Positions 39,013-52,601 of a DNA stretch of 64,000 nt are shown here, in pieces. The stretch is taken from positions 1,920,001 through 1,984,000 of the forward strand of contig OZ245011.1 in NCBI GenBank assembly GCA_965223665.1, read 5' to 3'. Both the position numbers and the translations under genes were made by a program. The notes beneath the pieces were generated by a model. That model was not told the DNA's origin, ran no database searches, and saw nothing but the letters and a program-made list of their open reading frames with translations. The first letter of the stretch is position 1. Each line of letters opens with the position of its first letter. The stretch is from Nitrospinaceae bacterium (GTDB lineage: Bacteria > Nitrospinota > Nitrospinia > Nitrospinales > Nitrospinaceae).

Positions 39013-39933
39013 ATGATCATGCTAACCAAAACGACACAAATGAACGATCAGCTGCTCACCATCGGGGAACTGGCAAAAAGAACTGGCATCACCACACACA
39101 CGCTCCGCAAGTGGGAAAAACGATACCAGGCCCCGAAGTCGATCCGCCTTCCTTCCGGACACCGGCGTTACCGTCCTGAAGAGGCGGATCGACTGAAAGC
39201 CGTAGCCAAGGCGTTGGAACTGGGTTTTCGGGCTGGAAGAATTGCGGGCGGTACTTTGGATGAGCTGAAGGAACTGATGGGGTTGGAAAAGTCCATCCAG
39301 GTACCGTCTCAGGCAAAACTGTCTGAGAGTTCACACATTGTTAAAAATTGGTTGCAGTGGGTCAAAGATTTCGATGAAGAACCGCTGGTTAGAGATATGC
39401 ATTGTCAATGGGGACGTCTCGGTCCGTTACGTTTCGTGACCGACCTGGCAGCGCCATGGGTAATGCAGATTGGGGAACATTGGCAACATGGGCATCTTAC
39501 AGTAGCGCATGAACATTTTGCCACCTCACTGCTCAGCGACTTTTTATCAAATCGGTGGCGTGGACTGAACGAACATAAGGAAGGACAACGTACGGCTCTG
39601 CTCACCACGCTGCCGGGAGAGAAACATATTTTAGGACTGCTGATGTGCGCGGTGGTCACGGCGGTGACTCACTGGAAAGTCATCTTCCTGGGACTGGACA
39701 CTCCGGAAGAAGAAATCGTTACCACCATGCGCAACTGTAATGCCGAGGTCTTATGCGTCAGTGTGACTGGTTGGTTTGGCGTTTCCCGAGCCCGACCGAT
39801 CTTGTGGCGCATTCGTAAACAGTTGAGCAAGGGCGTCGATATCTTTGTCGGGGGCAGTGGTGCTCCTGAGGATATCAAGGGCGTGCATAAAGTGGAAGAT
39901 TTTAACCAGTATCATAAATTTTTAACTCAATAG
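39013..39933 (+). CDS. carH: MerR-family cobalamin-binding regulator (CarH/LitR-like photoreceptor)
   Basis: MerR HTH (TLRKWEKRY, GHRRY); W-x9-EH (WQHGHLTVAHEH) and ExHxxG (GEKHILG) B12 motifs; FVGG. Exact start uncertain. Confidence 0.85.
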   Translation: MIMLTKTTQMNDQLLTIGELAKRTGITTHTLRKWEKRYQAPKSIRLPSGHRRYRPEEADRLKAVAKALELGFRAGRIAGGTLDELKELMGLEKSIQVPSQAKLSESSHIVKNWLQWVKDFDEEPLVRDMHCQWGRLGPLRFVTDLAAPWVMQIGEHWQHGHLTVAHEHFATSLLSDFLSNRWRGLNEHKEGQRTALLTTLPGEKHILGLLMCAVVTAVTHWKVIFLGLDTPEEEIVTTMRNCNAEVLCVSVTGWFGVSRARPILWRIRKQLSKGVDIFVGGSGAPEDIKGVHKVEDFNQYHKFLTQ

Positions 39934-40774: not shown

Positions 40775-41728
40775 ATGAAGCAAAAAATCAAAATTGGGGT
40801 CAGTAGCTGTCTGATTGGAGAAAAAGTCAGGTGGAATGGGGATCATAAGCAGAACCATTATGTCCGGGAAGTATTGGGCCATTATTTTGAATACGTCCCG
40901 GTTTGTCCGGAGGTGGAAGTGGGAATGGGAACTCCCCGAGAAACTGTGGCTCTTTATGGACCGCGGGAAAACCCCAAAATGATCAGCCGGAAAAGTCATA
41001 TCGATTGGACTTCACCAATGCGACACTACATTAAAAATCGAATTCCTGAATTAAACAAGGAGGATCTTTGCGGATACATTTTTAAAAGCAAATCTCCCTC
41101 CTGTGGTTTAGCTAGAATTCCCGTCTACTCGGATTTTACCCACCAGAAAGCCAGGCATGGGGCCGGTTTGTTCGCCGATGCCTTTAAAACAAAATATCCC
41201 TGGGTTCCCACGGAAGACGAAGGTCGGTTAAACGATTTCAAAATTCGAGAAAATTTTCTGGTCCGCGTGTTTTGCTTTCACAGATGGCAGCGTTTATTAA
41301 AGGAAGGATTTTCCATAAAGACACTCGTGGACTTTCACACTCGTCACAAATTTTTACTTTTGTCTCATAGTCGAAAATATTATGACGCTCTGGGGAAACT
41401 GGTGGCAAACGCAAAGTCTTTTAAAAAGCGTGAACTCCAGGATCAATACGTCAGTTTATTTATGGAAGCTCTCACGTATAAATCCACTCCCAAAAAAAAT
41501 ACCGATGTGCTGCTTCATATGCTGGGCTTCTTCAAGAAACAACTGCAAAAAAATGAAAAAGAAAATATTTTGAAGGTCATAGAAGATTACCGAAACGAAC
41601 TCATCCCTTTAATTGTTCCCGTTTCCTTAATGCGTCACATGGTAACCATTCACAATATTAAATATTTGCAGGACCAGGTTTATCTAAACCCACATCCGAA
41701 AGAACTTATGTTACGAAATCATGTTTAA
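40775..41728 (+). CDS. DUF523 + DUF1722 (YbgA-like) protein
   Basis: IGVSSCLIG, VCPEVEVGMGTPR, KSKSPSCG, EDEGRL, FHTRHK, YL.DQVYLNPHP.EL.LRNHV. Confidence 0.92.
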   Translation: MKQKIKIGVSSCLIGEKVRWNGDHKQNHYVREVLGHYFEYVPVCPEVEVGMGTPRETVALYGPRENPKMISRKSHIDWTSPMRHYIKNRIPELNKEDLCGYIFKSKSPSCGLARIPVYSDFTHQKARHGAGLFADAFKTKYPWVPTEDEGRLNDFKIRENFLVRVFCFHRWQRLLKEGFSIKTLVDFHTRHKFLLLSHSRKYYDALGKLVANAKSFKKRELQDQYVSLFMEALTYKSTPKKNTDVLLHMLGFFKKQLQKNEKENILKVIEDYRNELIPLIVPVSLMRHMVTIHNIKYLQDQVYLNPHPKELMLRNHV

Positions 41729-44547: not shown

Positions 44548-45580
44548 GTAGCACTCAAAAAATATTAGTCGGACAAGAGTTATAGACTATTTCAATTTTC
44601 AATTCCAGCCAAACTTACAAAATATGAAGGATTAGGCAAACAATTTAGAGATTTGTGCAATTTATTTTTATCAATTTTATATCCTCATTTATTTTAAAGT
44701 TCTTCTTAATATAATTTTAAAAACTACTGTGTAGGTAGGTTCGGGTAATCACAGTAGCAATTTATTGGATTCGGACCAAAATCCAAATCTTAAGGTCACC
44801 AAATAGTAACCCACACATTTTTTATCTATCAAAATATTTTTCAATTATTTAAGAAAAGAAATCGTTTTAAAGTTTGTTCAATTACCATTCCCCATAGCTA
44901 AATTTTTTTTTATTCCAAAATTGGCACAACCTTAAATTAGGAAAGCATAGAGATGCACCCAAAAAGAAGTGAAAGCTTAAGCCAATATGGAGTCAAAGCA
45001 CTTATGCAAAATATATATAGTGTTTCTTCTAATAAATATTCACTCACAAACATAAATAATTTCGAAAACTATATTCAGTTTTAATAAAGGTCTCTATTAA
45101 CTTCACCAGGCTCTAACATCAATGTCATTAAAGTAAATTTGAAGCGAGGTAGGAATTTTCCTACATCCCAAAACCCTTAAGGAAAGAACTATTTTTGTAG
45201 TTTTTAAAATTTAAATTCTGGGGCGTACCGTGAACCACTTAGACAAAAATTTTTTAACGAAGAATTTAAAATGAGTTTTCCAGCCCAATGATCAGGAAAT
45301 CATTAGGACCCGATATCTTAAATCATCAAGGCCAAAGAGATTTTTACTTTAAATTCTTTCAGTGGCTGCAAATTGTTTTTTTACAGGAAAAGCTTTTGTC
45401 TTAAGAATAAAATTTACATGGTGGGATTTATTACTTAATGTCTAAAAAAAAAAGCAGAAGAAGAGTGGACCCCAAATACCTGTGGGTTTTCTCCTTCTAC
45501 TTATGATTGATGAATCTTTGAATGATCGGTTAAAAAGCCAAAATGTTTTTTAACTACAAACGGAACCGAAATTTCCAAAC

Positions 45581-45781
45581 TTAACAATTACACGAAAAAG
45601 ACGGCTGATTGAAGCACGACAATGCCTGGGGTCCGGCAGAACCACAACCGTATGCCAGAGGTCCGGTAATACAACCTGTTGGTGAGGACCTATGGGTTTT
45701 AACAGTTTCCGAAGATTCCTCTTGAACGCTCCATTCAAAACCTTTTCGGTTAATAATTTTACTTTTTCTATTTTTAAGCAT
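45581..45781 (-). CDS. Putative RiPP precursor P2 (66 aa)
   Basis: FEWSVQE leader motif; SPTGC, PLAYGCGS, SFSCNC; GGAGG RBS. Confidence 0.85.
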   Translation of the reverse strand: MLKNRKSKIINRKGFEWSVQEESSETVKTHRSSPTGCITGPLAYGCGSAGPQALSCFNQPSFSCNC

Positions 45782-45916
45782 GATGCCTCCACTTGAATTG
45801 GACTAATTGTTCCAAAACTTAACCCCGTCAAAGGAAAAGGGAAGTGATCGTTAAATAATACACAAAAGCGGTTTTTGATTTTTTATAATCTCAATCATAC
45901 TACCCTCGAAAAAAGA

Positions 45917-45952
45917 AAAGGGGAAAAGTATAAAGCATTTATACTTTCCCCC
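45917..45952 (-). terminator. Probable terminator hairpin between P3 and P2
   Basis: GGGGAAAAGTATAAA-GCA-TTTATACTTTCCCC with an adjacent A run (U tract on the minus strand). Confidence 0.6.
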
Positions 45953-45983
45953 TTAATTTTTTGTATCCAAAGATCTTTAAATA

Positions 45984-46169
45984 TTAATTACATTCACAAC
46001 CATATGGAAGTGGTGTAATTGCATTTCGTGGAACACGGTTACATTCACAACCTAATGGAACCATTGGAGGGGTGCAACCTGTTGGCGAAGGAATATTAGA
46101 TTTTCTATTATTCTGCGCCTGTTCTTGAATGCTCCAATCAAAGCCTTTGGAATTTTTTCTGTTTTCCAT
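45984..46169 (-). CDS. Putative RiPP precursor P3 (61 aa)
   Basis: FDWSIQE leader motif; SPTGC; duplicated P[LY]GCECN; GGGAG RBS. Confidence 0.85.
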   Translation of the reverse strand: MENRKNSKGFDWSIQEQAQNNRKSNIPSPTGCTPPMVPLGCECNRVPRNAITPLPYGCECN

Positions 46170-46214
46170 AATGTTTTCGCTCCCGGAAAAAAAATACTAA
46201 TACATTATATATAG

Positions 46215-46412
46215 TTAACAGCTACCGCACCCATAAGGAAGCGGCCGTTGAATCGTGTACGATTGAGGTTGCGGCGAAAAAAAACAATCCCAACTCTGTA
46301 CCATTTGAGTATTGGGTTTATCCCCATTCACAGTTTCTTCTTGAATACTCCAGTTAAAGCTTTTGGGGTCTTCCATTGTTCTTAAAGCTTTATTATTTTT
46401 GGTTTGAATCAT
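46215..46412 (-). CDS. Putative RiPP precursor P4 (65 aa)
   Basis: Likely start MIQTK at 46412, 10 nt after the YcaO stop, with GGGGGAG RBS; FNWSIQE; QRPLPYGCGSC. Confidence 0.85.
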   Translation of the reverse strand: MIQTKNNKALRTMEDPKSFNWSIQEETVNGDKPNTQMVQSWDCFFSPQPQSYTIQRPLPYGCGSC

Positions 46413-46422
46413 TTCTCCCCCC

Positions 46423-48660
46423 TCAAGGAAAAGGATGTGGAAACAATATGCCCTTCCTGGGTTTGGTTCCACGGTTTTTAACCTCCGGTAATATTGGTTC
46501 CAGACCATAACCAAATGATATTGGAACCATCCCCTCAATTAAAGCTCGAACAACTTTAATAGTTGACCCGCCACTTAAAGTTAGACAGATCGCCGGAGTA
46601 ATGTCGAGATAATAGCTATTTCTTGCCCGTTCTGTCAACCAATTTTTAAGACTATTTAATTTCTCACAATGGCTCTTCACCCCTGAAAAATCAATAACAT
46701 CGGATCCCCGTAATAAATGGTCTGCCCTTTTGTAGTAACGCCTTTGACTATAAAGGTTTACATGATCCTCTGGAGTCGACGCATTTTCCGGCGAAATTGG
46801 TATCGGATTTCCGATCTGATCGGTCAGGGTCACCATCGACTCCAATTCACTGATTCCATGCTCTAAGGCCGAAAAAGGATCATACCCCGCCGCGGCCGTC
46901 ACTCGCGTCATTTTCTTCGGGGTATTTTGCGAAAACAGTAAAAAACTGGTTATAGGTTCCTGTGACATGACCAAAACCTGTGCCTCCCAGCCAATTTTGT
47001 TGAGTCCACGGATCCTGTTTTGGAGTTCACTCGGAATGGAAGAAAGAATTACTTTAGGAAGGGAAATTTTTCCCAACCAGGTTCGCATGAACTGATCGCG
47101 CTCAATCAATTCCACTATGGCACGGTCCAGCGCTCCTTCAAAGGTGGGGTAAGCCGCCACTCCGGATGTGGAAGTGAACGTATAAGGCAGTTCACTTTTC
47201 TTTCTTCGCTTTTCCATATAATAACTTTTGGGTTTTGAAGAAAAATACACCTGGTCCGCCAAAACCCAATGCGGTTCATCGGTGACCAAATGTTTAACCC
47301 GAACCCATTCATATTTCCTCCGCTTACTAAAAGGAGACAGAGGAAATTCCGGCCGTTCATATTGTTCCTTTGAATATTGAACAAACTTTTCGGGATCCAC
47401 AAAACGATCCAACTCTCCGGCAGTGGCCTTTTTAATATCCCTGGGCATCTGACAGGACAGACGTTCCACCGATTCGGCAATGGCTTTATCATAAGCCAAT
47501 AATGGATCCGCGTCTCGCCCCCAACACCATCCAGAAGATAACTTATCTAAAAATAAATTTGTGCGTGCAAAATAAAATGGTGGTTGATAAGAATTGCTGT
47601 CAAAGTCTACCCAGGAAAATGAAAGATCATAATCTTTATTTATTTTAGACTTTTCCTTTGGAGACAACTGATTCCCGACAACCATTACCAAATACGGGTC
47701 ATGATTCGGAAGCTCCGTGATGGGTTTAATACGTTCATCCATGTAACCGCCCAAAAGATAAACACCGACTCCCATTTCCAGAGCGCACAGTTGAATATTT
47801 TGAGCGGCGTGCCCCGTTTCAATCAAACAATACGAAACTGATCGATTTCCATACTTGGCTCCGGAGTGCGCAAAATTTCCACTGATAACGATAGCACCAT
47901 GGCCGGAAGCCACTCCCGTTGGATCGAGCAAAGCTCTAAATAATTTGTCAGGAGGGCTGGAAAGTTTCTTAAAACCAATCTTACGAGATTTGCCAAAACT
48001 GACATGATACACTCCCGCGTCCAGCTTGTTGGTCTTCCTCCATTGAATCCAGGTAAACTCCAAAGGATAAACACCTCCACCGGAAGGAACTGTTCGCCCG
48101 GCTCTTTGATCATACTTCCCCAGTTTTTTGGTGGCGTCCAACACTCCGTAACCGGCATACAGCAACGCCGTTATTTGATCCATTGACATGGCCGTGCGGT
48201 CAAATTCGCGATCGGTTCCCCTGTTCTGCAGCGATTCTATAAATTTGGTTTTAGGAGGACGAAAGGTTTTTGCTTTGGGATCCAGTTTTTGGACACGGTC
48301 ACTGGCCGCTTTCGCCAATTCAAAGGGCAACTCCGGAGGAACGTCCGAAGGGTAAGGTTGCGGGTTATGCACCCACGACCATTGATGAGAAATCCAATAC
48401 TTGGTAGGAACCAGAATTCCCCGGGAAACCAGATCATTCAAAAAACTAACGATCGTCTCTCGGTCAAAACTCTTGGAAAGACCGTCCACAATCGTTTTAA
48501 AATCACGTTTGCCATCGACGGTTTCAAAAAGGTCCTTCAATAAACTTTTGGGAGCGCGAATAGTAAAACTTTTACTACTTTTCATTACGGTTAATCTGTC
48601 ACCGGCTAATTTGACAGAAGAGGCAAAATTCAGGGGAGTATTATTTTCGATTTTTGACAT
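46423..48660 (-). CDS. Fused RRE-like / SagB-type FMN dehydrogenase / YcaO cyclodehydratase
   Basis: N-terminal wHTH (DGKR...FLNDLVSRGIL). Dehydrogenase motifs RTVPSGGGVYPLE, KYGNR, ETGHAAQN. YcaO ATP motifs AESVER, STSGVAA, ELIERD. C-terminal PHPFP. Confidence 0.88.
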   Translation of the reverse strand: MSKIENNTPLNFASSVKLAGDRLTVMKSSKSFTIRAPKSLLKDLFETVDGKRDFKTIVDGLSKSFDRETIVSFLNDLVSRGILVPTKYWISHQWSWVHNPQPYPSDVPPELPFELAKAASDRVQKLDPKAKTFRPPKTKFIESLQNRGTDREFDRTAMSMDQITALLYAGYGVLDATKKLGKYDQRAGRTVPSGGGVYPLEFTWIQWRKTNKLDAGVYHVSFGKSRKIGFKKLSSPPDKLFRALLDPTGVASGHGAIVISGNFAHSGAKYGNRSVSYCLIETGHAAQNIQLCALEMGVGVYLLGGYMDERIKPITELPNHDPYLVMVVGNQLSPKEKSKINKDYDLSFSWVDFDSNSYQPPFYFARTNLFLDKLSSGWCWGRDADPLLAYDKAIAESVERLSCQMPRDIKKATAGELDRFVDPEKFVQYSKEQYERPEFPLSPFSKRRKYEWVRVKHLVTDEPHWVLADQVYFSSKPKSYYMEKRRKKSELPYTFTSTSGVAAYPTFEGALDRAIVELIERDQFMRTWLGKISLPKVILSSIPSELQNRIRGLNKIGWEAQVLVMSQEPITSFLLFSQNTPKKMTRVTAAAGYDPFSALEHGISELESMVTLTDQIGNPIPISPENASTPEDHVNLYSQRRYYKRADHLLRGSDVIDFSGVKSHCEKLNSLKNWLTERARNSYYLDITPAICLTLSGGSTIKVVRALIEGMVPISFGYGLEPILPEVKNRGTKPRKGILFPHPFP

Positions 48661-49109
48661 ACTTTTTTTAATTTTTAATTCAAGTTTTTGTTAAAGGAGT
48701 TAATATAGAACAACAGGATAGTTTTCATTCCTGTTTATAACAAATGGAAAATAATCAGGGAAGTAAAACTTTTTGATTAATAGACCCTTGACCGAAAGTT
48801 TATTTTGAAAAAAAAATAAACAATCTTAAAAAGGAATTCCATGTGCTCCCTCTTTTTAAAGAGAACTTTGCATAACCAGGGATTATTGAATAAACAAGTT
48901 CAACAAAAGAGCGGAGACCGATGTTCGCCCTCTTTCCTAAAGAGGGTCGGGGTGATTCACCTCCAGGGGGTTTATATTTTCTGACTAATGCAGGGAGGTC
49001 TCCTCTTTAAAGAGGGCTGGGGTGATTTACATTTAAGGGCTTTATTCCAATTTTATATTTGAGTGTAATTCTTTTTGAGAAACCAACGAGTGATTAGATA
49101 ACTTTTTAA

Positions 49110-49928
49110 ATGGAAAACTCAAAAGAAGAAACCAACAATCCAAAAAAGAGTACTCCCATAAATCTATTGTGGACTGGAGGATGGGATTCTACATTTCGAC
49201 TGCTGGAGCTTTTAATTATAGAAAAAAAAAGCGTCCAACCTTATTACATTGTGGATCATGAAAGAGCATCCACACTCTATGAAATGAAAGCCATGCAAAC
49301 CATCAAGGAAATTCTCTTCATTAAATTTCCGGAAACTCAAGAGCTGTTATTCCCCACCATCACCCAACGCCGGAATCAGATCAAACCCAATAAAGAAATT
49401 ACTCAAAAATGGAAACAATTTTATAAGGAAATAAAATTAGGCAGCCAATACGATTGGATTCCTAGGTTTGCCGAGGAACAGGGTCTTTATGATCTGGAAC
49501 TGGGCCATGAAAAACCCTACAAGCCACGTCCCCTGGATGAAATCATTGATCCCAATATTATTGGTGAAGGGCACGAATGCCGAGTGACGAGCAACCCCAC
49601 CCGACCCATGGTCACTCTGTTTAAATATTTTCGTTTCCCAATTTATTTTGTCACAAAAGCAAAAATGGAGAGGATCTCTCGCGAAAACGATTTCTTTGAT
49701 ATCATGCAAAACGTCTGGTTTTGCCATCGCCCCAGAAGCAACGGCACCCCCTGCGAATTTTGCCGACCCTGCAGAGTGGCAAAGAAATCCGGGTTTTCCC
49801 ATGGCCTGCCCCCCTCGAACTGGTTGCGCGACCAATACTTAAAACTCTGTTACAAAGTTTCCTCTGCTTGGGACCAGTGCCTGCACATCCTTAAACGCAT
49901 TTCCCGTAAACTGAAAAACTTTTCCTGA
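49110..49928 (+). CDS. QueC-like / PP-loop adenine-nucleotide alpha-hydrolase protein
   Basis: LLWTGGWDSTF PP-loop variant; C-terminal WFCHRP...PCEFCRPC Zn motif. Confidence 0.75.
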   Translation: MENSKEETNNPKKSTPINLLWTGGWDSTFRLLELLIIEKKSVQPYYIVDHERASTLYEMKAMQTIKEILFIKFPETQELLFPTITQRRNQIKPNKEITQKWKQFYKEIKLGSQYDWIPRFAEEQGLYDLELGHEKPYKPRPLDEIIDPNIIGEGHECRVTSNPTRPMVTLFKYFRFPIYFVTKAKMERISRENDFFDIMQNVWFCHRPRSNGTPCEFCRPCRVAKKSGFSHGLPPSNWLRDQYLKLCYKVSSAWDQCLHILKRISRKLKNFS

Positions 49929-50017
49929 GTAATTCCAAAATTCAGAAATTGATTTAGAATAGGCCTAAAATGTAAAACCAAAAATTTTTGCCTTGATCTA
50001 TGGTAGGAGGAAAACCC

Positions 50018-51286
50018 ATGCCTAATAAAATAAAATTACTATTAATGGTATTTTTTGTCTCTTTGTTTTTTAACGGTTGCTCCAGTTTTGGAAAAGGGGT
50101 CGTCGAGGGACTCCTTGAGAATTCAGAAAAAGAAGATAAAAGAGCTTGTCAAATTTGGAGTAAAGGATTTGAAGGTATTGGAGCAAGCATTGAAAAAACT
50201 CAAGGTAAGACTAAGGTCTTAATGGTCCATGGAGTTGGAAGTCACATTCCCGGATACTCTACGATTCTATTAGAAAAATTATCTCAAAAACTAGATCTTC
50301 CTTTAATTGATATTCCTTTTAAGGAATTAACCATATCTGAAATCAATGATCCCTCAAAAAATTTGGGTAATTTGCGACTAAATAGATTAATCAGTAGAGA
50401 CAAAGAGAGGGAACTTTTATTTTATGAGCTAACTTGGTCTAGAATTAGTCAATCTGAAAAAGAAGTTTTAAATTATGATAATTCCGGTCTGTATTCCTTT
50501 CGACGTGCTAATGTTAATAACGCTTTGAAAAAGTTTTCGAATGACTCAATTTCGGACCCAATGATTTATTTAGGGGAAAAACAGGAGGATATTCAAAAAT
50601 CTGTAATACAAAGTGTTTGTTGGATGATTTCTTATGGGTGGAATACATTTCCTTCTGGTGAACATAAACTCTGCCAATTCAACAGCCCCGGGATATTAGA
50701 AAACGCAAAAAAAGATGATTATATTTTTATTTCACATAGTTTAGGCAGCAGAATTACCATTGACGCTCTTCAAAAAGTCGTAGGGTTGGTAAATAACAAA
50801 AATGTTCAAAAGAAGTTCCCCGAAGTAGAAAAACTTCACCACGAAATTCAAAATAGAGTTGTTACTATTTTTATGTTTTCTAATCAATTACCTTTATTGC
50901 AATTGGGCCGCCCATTACCAGAGATTTTGAATGAGAATGATAAATATTGTTTACCAAATGGAAGTCACTTTTCCGATCGATTTGCCAATCAAACTCATAT
51001 TATTGCATTTAGCGATCCCAATGATTTATTAAGTTACTCTATTCCCGCGGGATTCGAAAATAATTATCTTGATTCACGAATGTGTACTAAAGTAAGCAAT
51101 GTTAGTATCAATGTAGCTCATGTGGTAGATGTTTTCGGTGTCAGTGAAGTTGCCAATCCCATAGAAGCGCATGTGGGTTATGACAGTGATGATCGAGTGG
51201 TGGAATTAGTTGCTCATGGATTAAATAATCAAAATATTACTCCCATTATTAAAGAAAGATGTAAATGGATGGAGTTAGTGAAATGA
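50018..51286 (+). CDS. Lipoprotein with alpha/beta-hydrolase-like motifs
   Basis: Start MPNK after AGGAGG; FNGC lipobox; VHG, SHSLG, DPND, AH. Confidence 0.7.
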   Translation: MPNKIKLLLMVFFVSLFFNGCSSFGKGVVEGLLENSEKEDKRACQIWSKGFEGIGASIEKTQGKTKVLMVHGVGSHIPGYSTILLEKLSQKLDLPLIDIPFKELTISEINDPSKNLGNLRLNRLISRDKERELLFYELTWSRISQSEKEVLNYDNSGLYSFRRANVNNALKKFSNDSISDPMIYLGEKQEDIQKSVIQSVCWMISYGWNTFPSGEHKLCQFNSPGILENAKKDDYIFISHSLGSRITIDALQKVVGLVNNKNVQKKFPEVEKLHHEIQNRVVTIFMFSNQLPLLQLGRPLPEILNENDKYCLPNGSHFSDRFANQTHIIAFSDPNDLLSYSIPAGFENNYLDSRMCTKVSNVSINVAHVVDVFGVSEVANPIEAHVGYDSDDRVVELVAHGLNNQNITPIIKERCKWMELVK

Positions 51287-51296
51287 ATAAATTTCA

Positions 51297-52601
51297 ATGG
51301 AGGATCAAAGAATGAAATTCGCCAAGTTAATCATCTGGAAACCAGAAAGAAATATTTTATTTAATTTTTTTATTTTCGCCTTGAGTCTTACCATTCCCTC
51401 CCTATCATTTTCTAATAATTCATTTACAACACCAGCCTCCTCATCTACAAAAATATCCGAATATGAAACTCCTCCCATACTAAAAGCAAGCCAATATTTA
51501 CCTTCGAAATTACTTAAGAGTAAATACCATAAGGTAGAAGAAGATATTGACACCTTTGGGTTTACCAATTCATATCGAATTAATTCAAAGTTTTTTATTT
51601 CGGAAGTTAGAGGAGATGATTTGCTTCGTGAGAGGATTCAAGAAGTACATGCCCTGGCAACACTATTAAAAATGAAAAAGACAAACAAGTTTATTGATGC
51701 TGCCACACGGTCCGCTCTCTCTCCTGTATCTTTTGCAAAAAATCTTATTCTTCGACCGGTAGATACTATCTCTGGAATTCCTCAAGGTATTTGGAGGTTT
51801 TTTTCCCGAGTGGGAGAAATGACTGGAGGAAAGCGAGGACAAGCAGAGGATGGCATTTCCAAAGAATTAATTGGGTTCTCGGCGGTAAAAAGAAAAATTG
51901 CTCATCAGTTAGGTGTTGATGTTTATTCCACAAATCGCACTCTTCAGAAAGAATTAAATAGTGTTTCCTGGGCTTCTTTTTCGGGTGGTTTTGTAGTGAG
52001 CATGGCCATAACTCCACTTAGAGTTTTAAAGCTTACAAAAACAGCAAATAAAATGACAAAAATTTTGAGAGACAAAGCTCCAGAAGATTTGAGAAAATTG
52101 AACCGAGCCAAACTCAAAAAATTTATATCTAATGATAAACTTGTCGAAAAGTTTTTAGAACACCCCTATTTTTCTCCACGACATGAAACTTTTCTTGTAG
52201 CCGCATTAGAAAATATGCAGGGAACTCAAAATTTGGATAAATTCGTCTATCGAGCTTATAAAGCTCAATCTTTTGAGGATGCTTTTATTTTCCAACGTAT
52301 CGCAGAGATATTAGATAAATATCATAATGAAGTTTCACCAATTCAGAAAATAGCAATTGAACCTTCAAGAAATTTTCCGGTAGCAATTACAAAAGATAAC
52401 AAATTAGTCATCGCGTTATTAGTAGACTATGCTGTTTGGTCCAAAATTGCTGCCAAGTGGGCCCAGGACTTAACCCGAGCAAATAATAGAGTGAACCCAA
52501 ATCGAAAAATAGAACTATTGATTACTGGCACATTGTCTCCAAGAGCCAGAAACGAATTAAAATCCTTAGGGATATCCGTCAAGGAAAAAGTTTTAGATTA
52601 A
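51297..52601 (+). CDS. Hypothetical exported protein
   Basis: 434-aa ORF with an N-terminal hydrophobic segment. Confidence 0.7.
   Translation: MEDQRMKFAKLIIWKPERNILFNFFIFALSLTIPSLSFSNNSFTTPASSSTKISEYETPPILKASQYLPSKLLKSKYHKVEEDIDTFGFTNSYRINSKFFISEVRGDDLLRERIQEVHALATLLKMKKTNKFIDAATRSALSPVSFAKNLILRPVDTISGIPQGIWRFFSRVGEMTGGKRGQAEDGISKELIGFSAVKRKIAHQLGVDVYSTNRTLQKELNSVSWASFSGGFVVSMAITPLRVLKLTKTANKMTKILRDKAPEDLRKLNRAKLKKFISNDKLVEKFLEHPYFSPRHETFLVAALENMQGTQNLDKFVYRAYKAQSFEDAFIFQRIAEILDKYHNEVSPIQKIAIEPSRNFPVAITKDNKLVIALLVDYAVWSKIAAKWAQDLTRANNRVNPNRKIELLITGTLSPRARNELKSLGISVKEKVLD

Follow-up and report, generated by a model that had tools for sequence, protein, structure and literature searches.

A single gene in a 64,000-nt window of a Nitrospinaceae bacterium genome (GCA_965223665.1, contig OZ245011.1, positions 1,920,001-1,984,000) encodes a predicted RiPP (peptide synthesized on the ribosome and post-translationally modified) recognition element (RRE), a SagB-type dehydrogenase and a YcaO domain in one chain; coordinates below are those of this window, the whole stretch of DNA that was analyzed. 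We consider it probable (roughly 0.6), from its domain content and its distribution among genomes, that the gene encodes a self-contained single-chain linear azol(in)e-containing peptide/thiazole-oxazole-modified microcin (LAP/TOMM) synthetase, which would operate with no E1-like/ocin-ThiF partner. The open reading frame (ORF) specifies 745 aa from an ATG start with zero internal stops, and the full-length AlphaFold2 (AF2) model of the fusion has a pLDDT (predicted local distance difference test) of 83.9 and a pTM (predicted template modeling score) of 0.80. Because the three domains, of ~95, 240 and 405 residues, use up all 745 residues, the chain has no space for an E1-like domain.

Both catalytic domains are recognized by curated profiles. 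In the Pfam scan, Nitroreductase PF00881 matches residues 145-329 (54.4 bits; cut-off 23.5) and YcaO PF02624 matches residues 381-711 (119.6 bits; cut-off 25.7), and the NCBIfam SagB model TIGR03605 matches residues 160-329 with 82.5 bits, which exceeds its cut-off of 78.4. The SagD model TIGR03604 aligns with residues 389-745 over profile positions 9-377 of 377, with the C-terminal PHPFP included. The translation of the dehydrogenase domain contains R147-x-T-x-R151-x-F153, the conserved Arg motif for the phosphate of flavin mononucleotide (FMN), and A-K269-Y270-G-N-R273; that of the YcaO domain contains K392-A-I-A-E396-S-V-E399-R, T-S499-G500-V-A502-A and E517-L-I-E520-R521-D522, and the chain ends in F-P-H742-P-F-P. 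Across 92 family representatives (25-37% identity), G195, Y270, G283, G329, E396, G500, E517, E520, R521 and H742 are invariant, and K269 is conserved in at least 90% of a 20-sequence alignment. Foldseek matches of the SagB domain are BmdC, McbC and ThcOx, and those of the YcaO domain are LynD, TruD, an archaeal YcaO, McbD and MusD; the best overall structural matches of the fusion are LynD (4v1t, E 4.7e-15) and TruD (4bs9, E 6.2e-14). A Lys201-Tyr202 mechanism of McbC and a C-terminal Pro that reaches into the YcaO pocket are described in the accessible text of PMC6395948.

The N-terminal domain, judged by consistent matches of its predicted structure and by a profile match to LynD, is an RRE-type winged helix spanning residues ~9-94. 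A domain model of residues 1-100, for which 16 orthologous N-termini were aligned, has a pLDDT of 85.3 and a topology of four strands (residues 9-12, 16-19, 22-27 and 30-35), three helices (38-47, 54-61 and 67-79) and one further strand (83-85). Foldseek against the PDB places ThcOx, LynD, TruD, McbB, TbiB1 with leader, MibB, TbtB and the isolated PbtF RRE on top, with NisB and MadB as further matches (TMq 0.46-0.64, rmsd 2.3-5.2 Å, E from 5.7e-3 upward); the best match of the isolated domain is ThcOx (5lq4; E 5.7e-3, rmsd 2.6 Å, 85 columns), and the E-values are modest because the domain is small. With VIA-align and a set of 48,161 representative chains, MibB comes first (Z 9.0), followed by TigE (8.4), LynD residues 6-100 (8.4), ThcOx residues 1-102 (8.1), TbtB (8.1), BmdC residues 2-94 (7.9) and the PbtF RRE (7.8), so that with both aligners the matches are almost all RRE-bearing RiPP enzymes. 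Since Z values of 7-8 are a common best score, the RRE assignment rests on the consistency of the match list together with the LynD match: for a profile of the 16 N-termini, the best PDB sequence is LynD residues 37-85, which is its RRE (E 0.0069), with PqqD 5sxy further down (E 0.093). PqqD PF05402 itself scores 12.7 bits on the fusion N-terminus, below the gathering score of 23.4, and gives sub-threshold matches at E<=1 in 4/16 N-terminal family members (best 0.0029); other sub-threshold Pfam matches are also to RRE-bearing families (PaaA-like_N in 6/16 members, the LanB N-terminus in 4/16). Two RRE columns, G50 and L77, are conserved in at least 90% of the 92 representatives.

A preliminary description of this gene, made from its letters and translated ORFs, had proposed an RRE, dehydrogenase and YcaO in a single 745-aa chain, with a ~85-aa N-terminal winged helix-turn-helix as the RRE, a SagB-like domain retaining the Lys-Tyr pair (KYGNR), and a YcaO with intact ExxER, SxGxA and ExxERD motifs and PHPFP. 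The ORF, the two Pfam matches, the RRE fold returned by two aligners and the invariance of Y270 and of the six YcaO residues all bear this out. Docking of the leader by structure prediction, which the same description had put forward as a check, gave an intermediate result: the RRE with a precursor scored 0.38 and three controls all scored 0.00, with at least 90% of contacts shared between runs and a partner pLDDT of at least 44, but the score lies in a range shared with mismatched pairs, given that the mark used is reached by 58/80 solved complexes and 2/110 mismatched pairs and that just 7 of those 80 solved complexes, along with both passing mismatched pairs, score 0.60 or lower. The predicted complex thus lends weak support to binding of the precursor leader by the RRE.

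Four putative precursor genes accompany the fusion gene on the same strand (Table 1). Precursor 1 begins 8 nt past the fusion stop codon. Precursors 1-3 have K(S/G)F(N/D/E)WS(I/V)QE near the N-terminus and tails with recurrent Gly-Cys contexts, and precursor 4 lies 3.4 kb beyond them, with GGDEF and AraC genes between. All four share an FxWS[IV]QE leader and have 3-5 Cys each. Genome-wide, in six frames over 4.35 Mb, FxWS[IV]QE has 4 occurrences, which all fall on the fusion strand in a span of 4.3 kb, and 10 codon-chunk shuffles of the main contig give 0.0. An alignment of 11 precursors has an invariant Trp and a Phe that is conserved in at least 90%, and purine-rich Shine-Dalgarno-like stretches precede three of the window's precursors. 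No NCBIfam family was matched by any of six precursors, of which three belong to the window and the other three to related loci.

According to the single-chain reading, modification would proceed in three steps. The N-terminal RRE would bind the FxWS(I/V)QE leader stretch of the four precursors, with the alternation of F, W and I/V probably adding a strand to the RRE sheet; the McbA leader is described as adding a strand to the McbB RRE sheet (PMC6395948, accessible text). The YcaO domain would then use ATP to cyclodehydrate core Cys residues (in PYGCGSC and PLGCECN contexts) to thiazolines, which the fused SagB domain would oxidize to thiazoles with FMN and the Lys269-Tyr270 pair. The dehydrogenase-borne RRE, of the ThcOx/BmdC type, would take over the leader-binding role of the partner, tethering to the presumably dimeric nitroreductase domain would replace its scaffolding role, and leader removal and export would be carried out by unlinked functions in this organism. 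The analysis shows the architecture, the folds, the conserved motifs, the neighboring precursors, the purifying selection and the lack of E1-like partners in other fusion-bearing genomes; we infer that the protein dimerizes, binds both FMN and the leader, and catalyzes ATP-dependent cyclodehydration as well as oxidation.

In its catalytic parts, the fusion resembles McbBCD, SagBCD and BalhCD/BcerB, which likewise combine a SagD-type YcaO with a Pro-rich tail and a SagB/McbC-type FMN dehydrogenase with a Lys-Tyr pair, and it resembles split LAP/TOMM synthetases in leader recognition by an RRE (here predicted) and in the Cys-rich precursors beside the enzymes. Set against the B + C + D composition of LAP/TOMM loci, the fusion locus has the YcaO, the SagB dehydrogenase and nearby precursors but no E1-like/ocin-ThiF component: unlike McbBCD and SagBCD, it has no E1-like C/McbB protein or domain, and B and D form one polypeptide that carries the RRE. 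LynD, TruD and PatD (RRE-E1-YcaO) are also single chains with the RRE first and the YcaO last, but the middle domain of the fusion is a nitroreductase-fold FMN dehydrogenase rather than an E1-like domain, and the fusion should therefore deliver azoles and not azolines. The cyanobactin oxidase ThcOx and the bacillamide nonribosomal peptide synthetase oxidase BmdC have one or more N-terminal RRE-like domains fused to a SagB/McbC-type FMN domain, as does the fusion; unlike the fusion, they have no YcaO domain and act after a separate cyclodehydratase. Because the closest RRE structures are those of ThcOx and BmdC, the likeliest history is that an RRE-bearing dehydrogenase joined a YcaO, not that a CD enzyme lost its E1 domain. 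Neither an RRE nor a fused dehydrogenase is known from bottromycin-type stand-alone YcaOs, in whose substrates a follower takes the place of the leader. These YcaOs act without an E1-like partner (PMC4603692, accessible text), as is proposed here for the fusion. ThcOx has two RRE copies according to the accessible text of PMC6395948, whereas the RRE of the fusion is the only one in its system. Unlike TfuA-dependent thioamidating YcaOs, the fusion has no adjacent TfuA.

The alternative that survives best is that the fusion needs a helper in trans, either the E1-like C protein of a canonical cluster or an unrecognized non-E1 activator, and that by itself it would bind leader and oxidize but cyclodehydrate poorly; we regard this as unlikely. 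The preliminary description had claimed that there is no E1-like partner, which holds at the locus, where family scans of the ORFs between 38293 and 54921 found no E1-like protein, but fails genome-wide. About 607 kb away, the genome has a complete canonical split LAP cluster encoding a 77-aa precursor (…SSCVCICCTASV…), a 343-aa E1-like protein, a 457-aa YcaO ending in DPHPFP and a 289-aa SagB, and because of this cluster help in trans is conceivable. The E1-like protein (G000:C1:1358196-1359227) scores 55.3 bits with TIGR03882 (cut-off 36.9) and has an N-terminal RRE-like region. In addition, potentiation of YcaO proteins by C proteins is established (PMC4603692, accessible text), and the fusion retains the PHPFP tail typical of partner-dependent SagD-type YcaOs. 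However, the leader of the canonical precursor differs and has no FxW, and the two systems have different distributions. In a set of 41 related genomes, only this one and a single congener (86% identity) have the fused gene; in 15 others the matches are all separate ones of SagB and/or YcaO length, and in the remaining 24 there is no match at E<=1e-10. Split YcaO and SagB pairs are found in many family and order relatives; since these relatives share the canonical cluster and just one genus has the fusion, the two were acquired separately.

Genomes elsewhere that carry the fusion also argue against a trans-acting E1-like helper. TIGR03882 is above its cut-off in 0/10 other fusion-bearing genomes; in the five large ones it scores 29-33 bits, like the sub-threshold matches of housekeeping E1 proteins in control genomes. 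ThiF PF00899 is above its cut-off in 0/5 fusion-bearing genomes of 0.5-1.0 Mb. The conserved neighbors of 28 related loci include no E1-like group, and no conserved unknown neighbor is present at all loci. This comparison of genomes suggests that trans help from an E1-like protein is unlikely and that the fusion is probably partner-independent, and together with the domain architecture it supports the preliminary view of a one-enzyme azole synthase.

Several observations nevertheless count against the single-chain reading. In characterized azoline-forming YcaOs, the C protein raises the rate by orders of magnitude (PMC4603692, accessible text), and this genome does encode one TOMM-type E1-like gene, that of the canonical cluster. 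The comparison genomes are mostly metagenome-assembled genomes (MAGs) of unstated completeness, and in the record of the one complete small genome among them (L040) the fusion gene is in three ORF pieces. TIGR03693 (ocin-ThiF) gave no match in the five small genomes, but this model matched no control genome either. The check by domain profiles that the preliminary description had put forward succeeded for PF00881, PF02624 and TIGR03605 but not for the SagD model, which scores 138.2 bits against a cut-off of 219.25, nor for the N-terminus, on which Pfam and NCBIfam scans place zero families above curated cut-offs. K269 falls below 90% conservation in the wider 92-sequence alignment, RREs that are joined to a dehydrogenase have been regarded as possibly vestigial (PMC7470986, accessible text), and no protease or ABC-transporter family is found among ORFs of at least 150 aa between 38293 and 54921. 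The literature searched contained no biochemical characterization of any family member.

A second alternative, which we hold to be improbable, is that the YcaO domain performs other chemistry, such as formation of an amidine or thioamide or a MusD-like ATP-dependent peptide cleavage, so that the product is not a simple poly-thiazole. MusD (7u58) is among the matches of the fusion (Foldseek E 5.8e-12, phmmer E 4.9e-4), and the title of this PDB entry is 'YcaO-mediated ATP-dependent peptidase activity in ribosomal peptide biosynthesis'; cleavage by YcaO could explain leader removal at a locus that has no dedicated protease linked to it (DUF2268 is not found anywhere in the genome), and the sub-threshold TIGR03604 score points the same way. 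Against this, a fused SagB with an invariant catalytic Tyr is sensible only if azolines form, the cores are Cys-rich with Gly-Cys contexts, TfuA is not found, and the structures that match the fusion best overall are those of LynD and TruD, heterocyclases that form azolines. TfuA PF07812 has 0 matches at E<=0.1 across the 98.6%-complete genome, and this result, with the ORF scans above, confirms the earlier statement that TfuA, a protease and an ABC exporter are lacking beside the gene.

Compared with the congener, the fusion gene has a dN/dS of 0.105 overall at a dS of about 0.73 (RRE 0.134, SagB 0.067, YcaO 0.120), and all three domains, the RRE included, are under purifying selection. The congener retains the fusion and two precursors, with the leader the same and the first core diverged, and the counterpart of precursor 4 in the sister genome adjoins the fusion locus. 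That the locus is instead a cryptic or decaying acquisition, with a vestigial RRE and peptides that are not made in this organism, is the least probable alternative and very doubtful: the restriction of the fusion to one genus among the related genomes, the lack of a linked exporter, immunity gene or protease and the rearranged precursor set would fit it, but it is contradicted by the constraint on all three domains, by an ORF intact in both congeners, by Shine-Dalgarno-like stretches at three precursors and the placement of precursor 1 directly after the enzyme, and by a leader that is conserved while cores vary. Base composition was considered as evidence of transfer and discarded, the fusion having a GC of 0.444 against 0.383 for the genome in a background where 10% of equal-sized windows are as high.

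The RRE-SagB-YcaO architecture extends well beyond this genus. An exhaustive HMMER search returned 252 cluster representatives at E<=1e-30, and among the 150 matches listed (query included) 127 have a single continuous alignment that starts no later than residue 70 and extends at least to residue 720. A word-indexed search returned 21 further proteins, for 19 of which both Pfam domains are listed, and the ESM Atlas has six Nitroreductase + YcaO clusters, of which the three shown have 71-147 members each and generic names. Since hundreds of database sequences share the architecture, the locus is one example of an uncharacterized family and is not unique. Genome matches come from Pseudomonadota (Achromobacter, Cupriavidus, Variovorax, Reyranella), Bdellovibrionales and many lineages of the candidate phyla radiation (CPR); Nostoc versions align from residue ~100 onward only. 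Open full-text literature, a scope that leaves subscription papers and supplements outside, yielded no description of a dehydrogenase-YcaO fusion and no paper that mentions YcaO together with CPR taxa; CD, PatG-oxidase and RRE-oxidase fusions are on record in the accessible text of PMC4603692, PMC7470986 and PMC6395948.

In 11/29 related loci, small ORFs that combine an F-x-W-[KRSTNC]-[VI]-[TSQA] motif with a Cys-rich tail are located no more than 3 kb from the fusion gene, and leader-like motifs have 12 matches in 152 kb near fusion genes vs 1 in 123 kb of farther flank. Because similar leaders cluster near related fusion genes, the enzyme and the leader appear to travel together across phyla. 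We tentatively propose, at somewhat less than even odds, that the RRE-SagB-YcaO fusion constitutes a widespread, horizontally mobile two-component RiPP system of one enzyme and FxW-leader precursors, in which the dehydrogenase would do both E1-like jobs, namely carrying the RRE and scaffolding or activating the YcaO. One neighbor group is present in 13/28 related loci, with three scanned members that are DUF2268 predicted Zn-proteases; an ATP-grasp-like neighbor group is present in 8 related loci, with one of two scanned members just above the cut-off; and ABC/HlyD/OEP genes occur in three related loci. From these annotations, it is the DUF2268 or ABC/HlyD/OEP neighbors in relatives that putatively supply the functions missing at this locus. 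The preliminary description missed these genes of the relatives, along with the canonical C+D+B cluster, the four precursors and the horizontally scattered family.

Family members also vary in architecture. In the metagenome proteins P0023, P0025 and P0027 (951-968 aa), which at 37-38% identity are the closest distant relatives, a GNAT acetyltransferase domain precedes RRE-SagB-YcaO; this extra domain suggests N-acylated azole peptides. Split forms, in which RRE-SagB (~320 aa) and YcaO (~500-550 aa) are encoded by two ORFs that adjoin or overlap, come from CPR and gammaproteobacterial MAGs (L036 158-2640, L037 5881-8399, L038 5923-8405). Isolates of Cupriavidus (L024 2684-8199) and Achromobacter (L022 5908-10499) have two tandem fusion copies each, and the two copies of Cupriavidus are separated by a ~326-aa member of the ATP-grasp-like group that has no Pfam match. 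Beside a fusion gene of Saccharibacteria, there is a precursor-like ORF (L028 2553-2783) with the leader variant ISFTVTE and a (C-x-C/D-C) repeat core. A metagenome search with a single protein gave one truncated locus (L100), in which there is no motif-bearing ORF.

What an E1-like partner contributes beyond leader binding has been left open, and a natural enzyme that lacks this partner while retaining an RRE, a SagD-type YcaO and the PHPFP tail makes the question testable, with the canonical split C+D+B cluster of the same genome as an internal control. If the proposed two-component system is real, efficient azoline formation would not require an E1-like domain, and the RREs of azoline oxidases, supposed to be vestigial, would have a function; given CPR genomes of 0.5-1 Mb, these systems would be among the smallest complete azole-peptide pathways known. 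The spread into such ultra-small genomes suggests that azole peptides are of importance to the ecology of episymbionts. A single gene installing thiazoles on leader-tagged peptides would also be a compact tool for peptide engineering.

Table 1. Coordinates of the fusion gene, its domains, the precursors and associated features (window positions, except in the last row).
Feature	Position	Strand	Basis or remarks
Fusion gene (RRE - SagB dehydrogenase - YcaO)	46423..48660	(-)	ORF list, translation, Pfam, NCBIfam, AF2 model
Predicted RRE (winged helix, PqqD-like), residues 1-95 (fold ~9-94)	48376..48660	(-)	Domain model, Foldseek, VIA-align, profile search
SagB-type FMN dehydrogenase domain, residues ~100-340	47641..48363	(-)	TIGR03605, PF00881, Foldseek, invariant Y270
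YcaO (SagD-type) cyclodehydratase domain, residues ~341-745	46426..47640	(-)	PF02624, TIGR03604 alignment, Foldseek, invariant residues
Precursor 1, 65 aa	46215..46412	(-)	Leader KSFNWSIQEE; core end RPLPYGCGSC
Precursor 2, 61 aa, 5 Cys	45984..46169	(-)	Leader KGFDWSIQEQ; core PLGCECN…, end PLPYGCECN
Terminator-like hairpin, 17-pair stem + T run, 3' of precursor 2	45918..45954	(-)	Consensus match only
Precursor 3, 66 aa, 5 Cys	45581..45781	(-)	Leader KGFEWSVQEE; core …AYGCGSA…, end PSFSCNC
Precursor 4, 63 aa	41995..42186	(-)	Leader NFFQWSIQEK, core …PYGSGCSDQRPLCFSCSD; genome-wide motif scan + translation
Canonical split LAP cluster	G000:C1:1357928-1361449 (L092 5928-9449)		~607 kb from fusion locus

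In the promoter/terminator scan that includes the hairpin after precursor 2, the total count equals the shuffle expectation. The stretch 45500-48700 occurs in whole or in part in four runs of one study, three of them with at least half of the sampled words, and none of the four is recorded as RNA.

The ORFs between 38293 and 54921 include a MerR/B12 regulator, a 2-thiouracil desulfurase-DUF1722 protein, a GGDEF protein, an AraC regulator, a weak Cache-domain protein below its Pfam cut-off and five ORFs with no family above a curated cut-off. The MerR-family regulator with B12-binding domains (39013-39933, +; B12-binding match just below the Pfam cut-off), which presumably has a light-sensor architecture, and the 2-thiouracil desulfurase/DUF1722 protein (40775-41728, +) lie just past precursor 4 and are syntenic in the sister genome. 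On the other side, a 272-aa ORF (49110-49928, +) is kept beside the locus in the sister genome; it matches no family and contains TGGWDST, a PP-loop-like motif, together with the Cys cluster CEFCRPC at the C-terminal end, a combination that we take to resemble QueC-type ATP pyrophosphatases. It was considered as a DUF2268-like protease and rejected (BLASTP against a DUF2268 neighbor E 3.2, no Pfam match). The two ORFs that follow (50000-51286 and 51297-52601, +; 428 and 434 aa, no Pfam match) encode a predicted lipoprotein, in which HSLGS resembles a serine-hydrolase motif, and a protein with a membrane anchor; these ORFs were rejected as cluster members and are regarded as an insertion, because they are missing from the equivalent region of the sister genome.

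Between the fusion gene and the 272-aa ORF, the intergenic stretch 48822-49030 contains two to three palindromic repeats of the form CCCTCTTT-loop-AAAGAGGG, with ATCACCCC in front. As the 21-base pattern has 40 copies in the genome, these repeats are a dispersed element resembling repetitive extragenic palindromes rather than a locus-specific operator.

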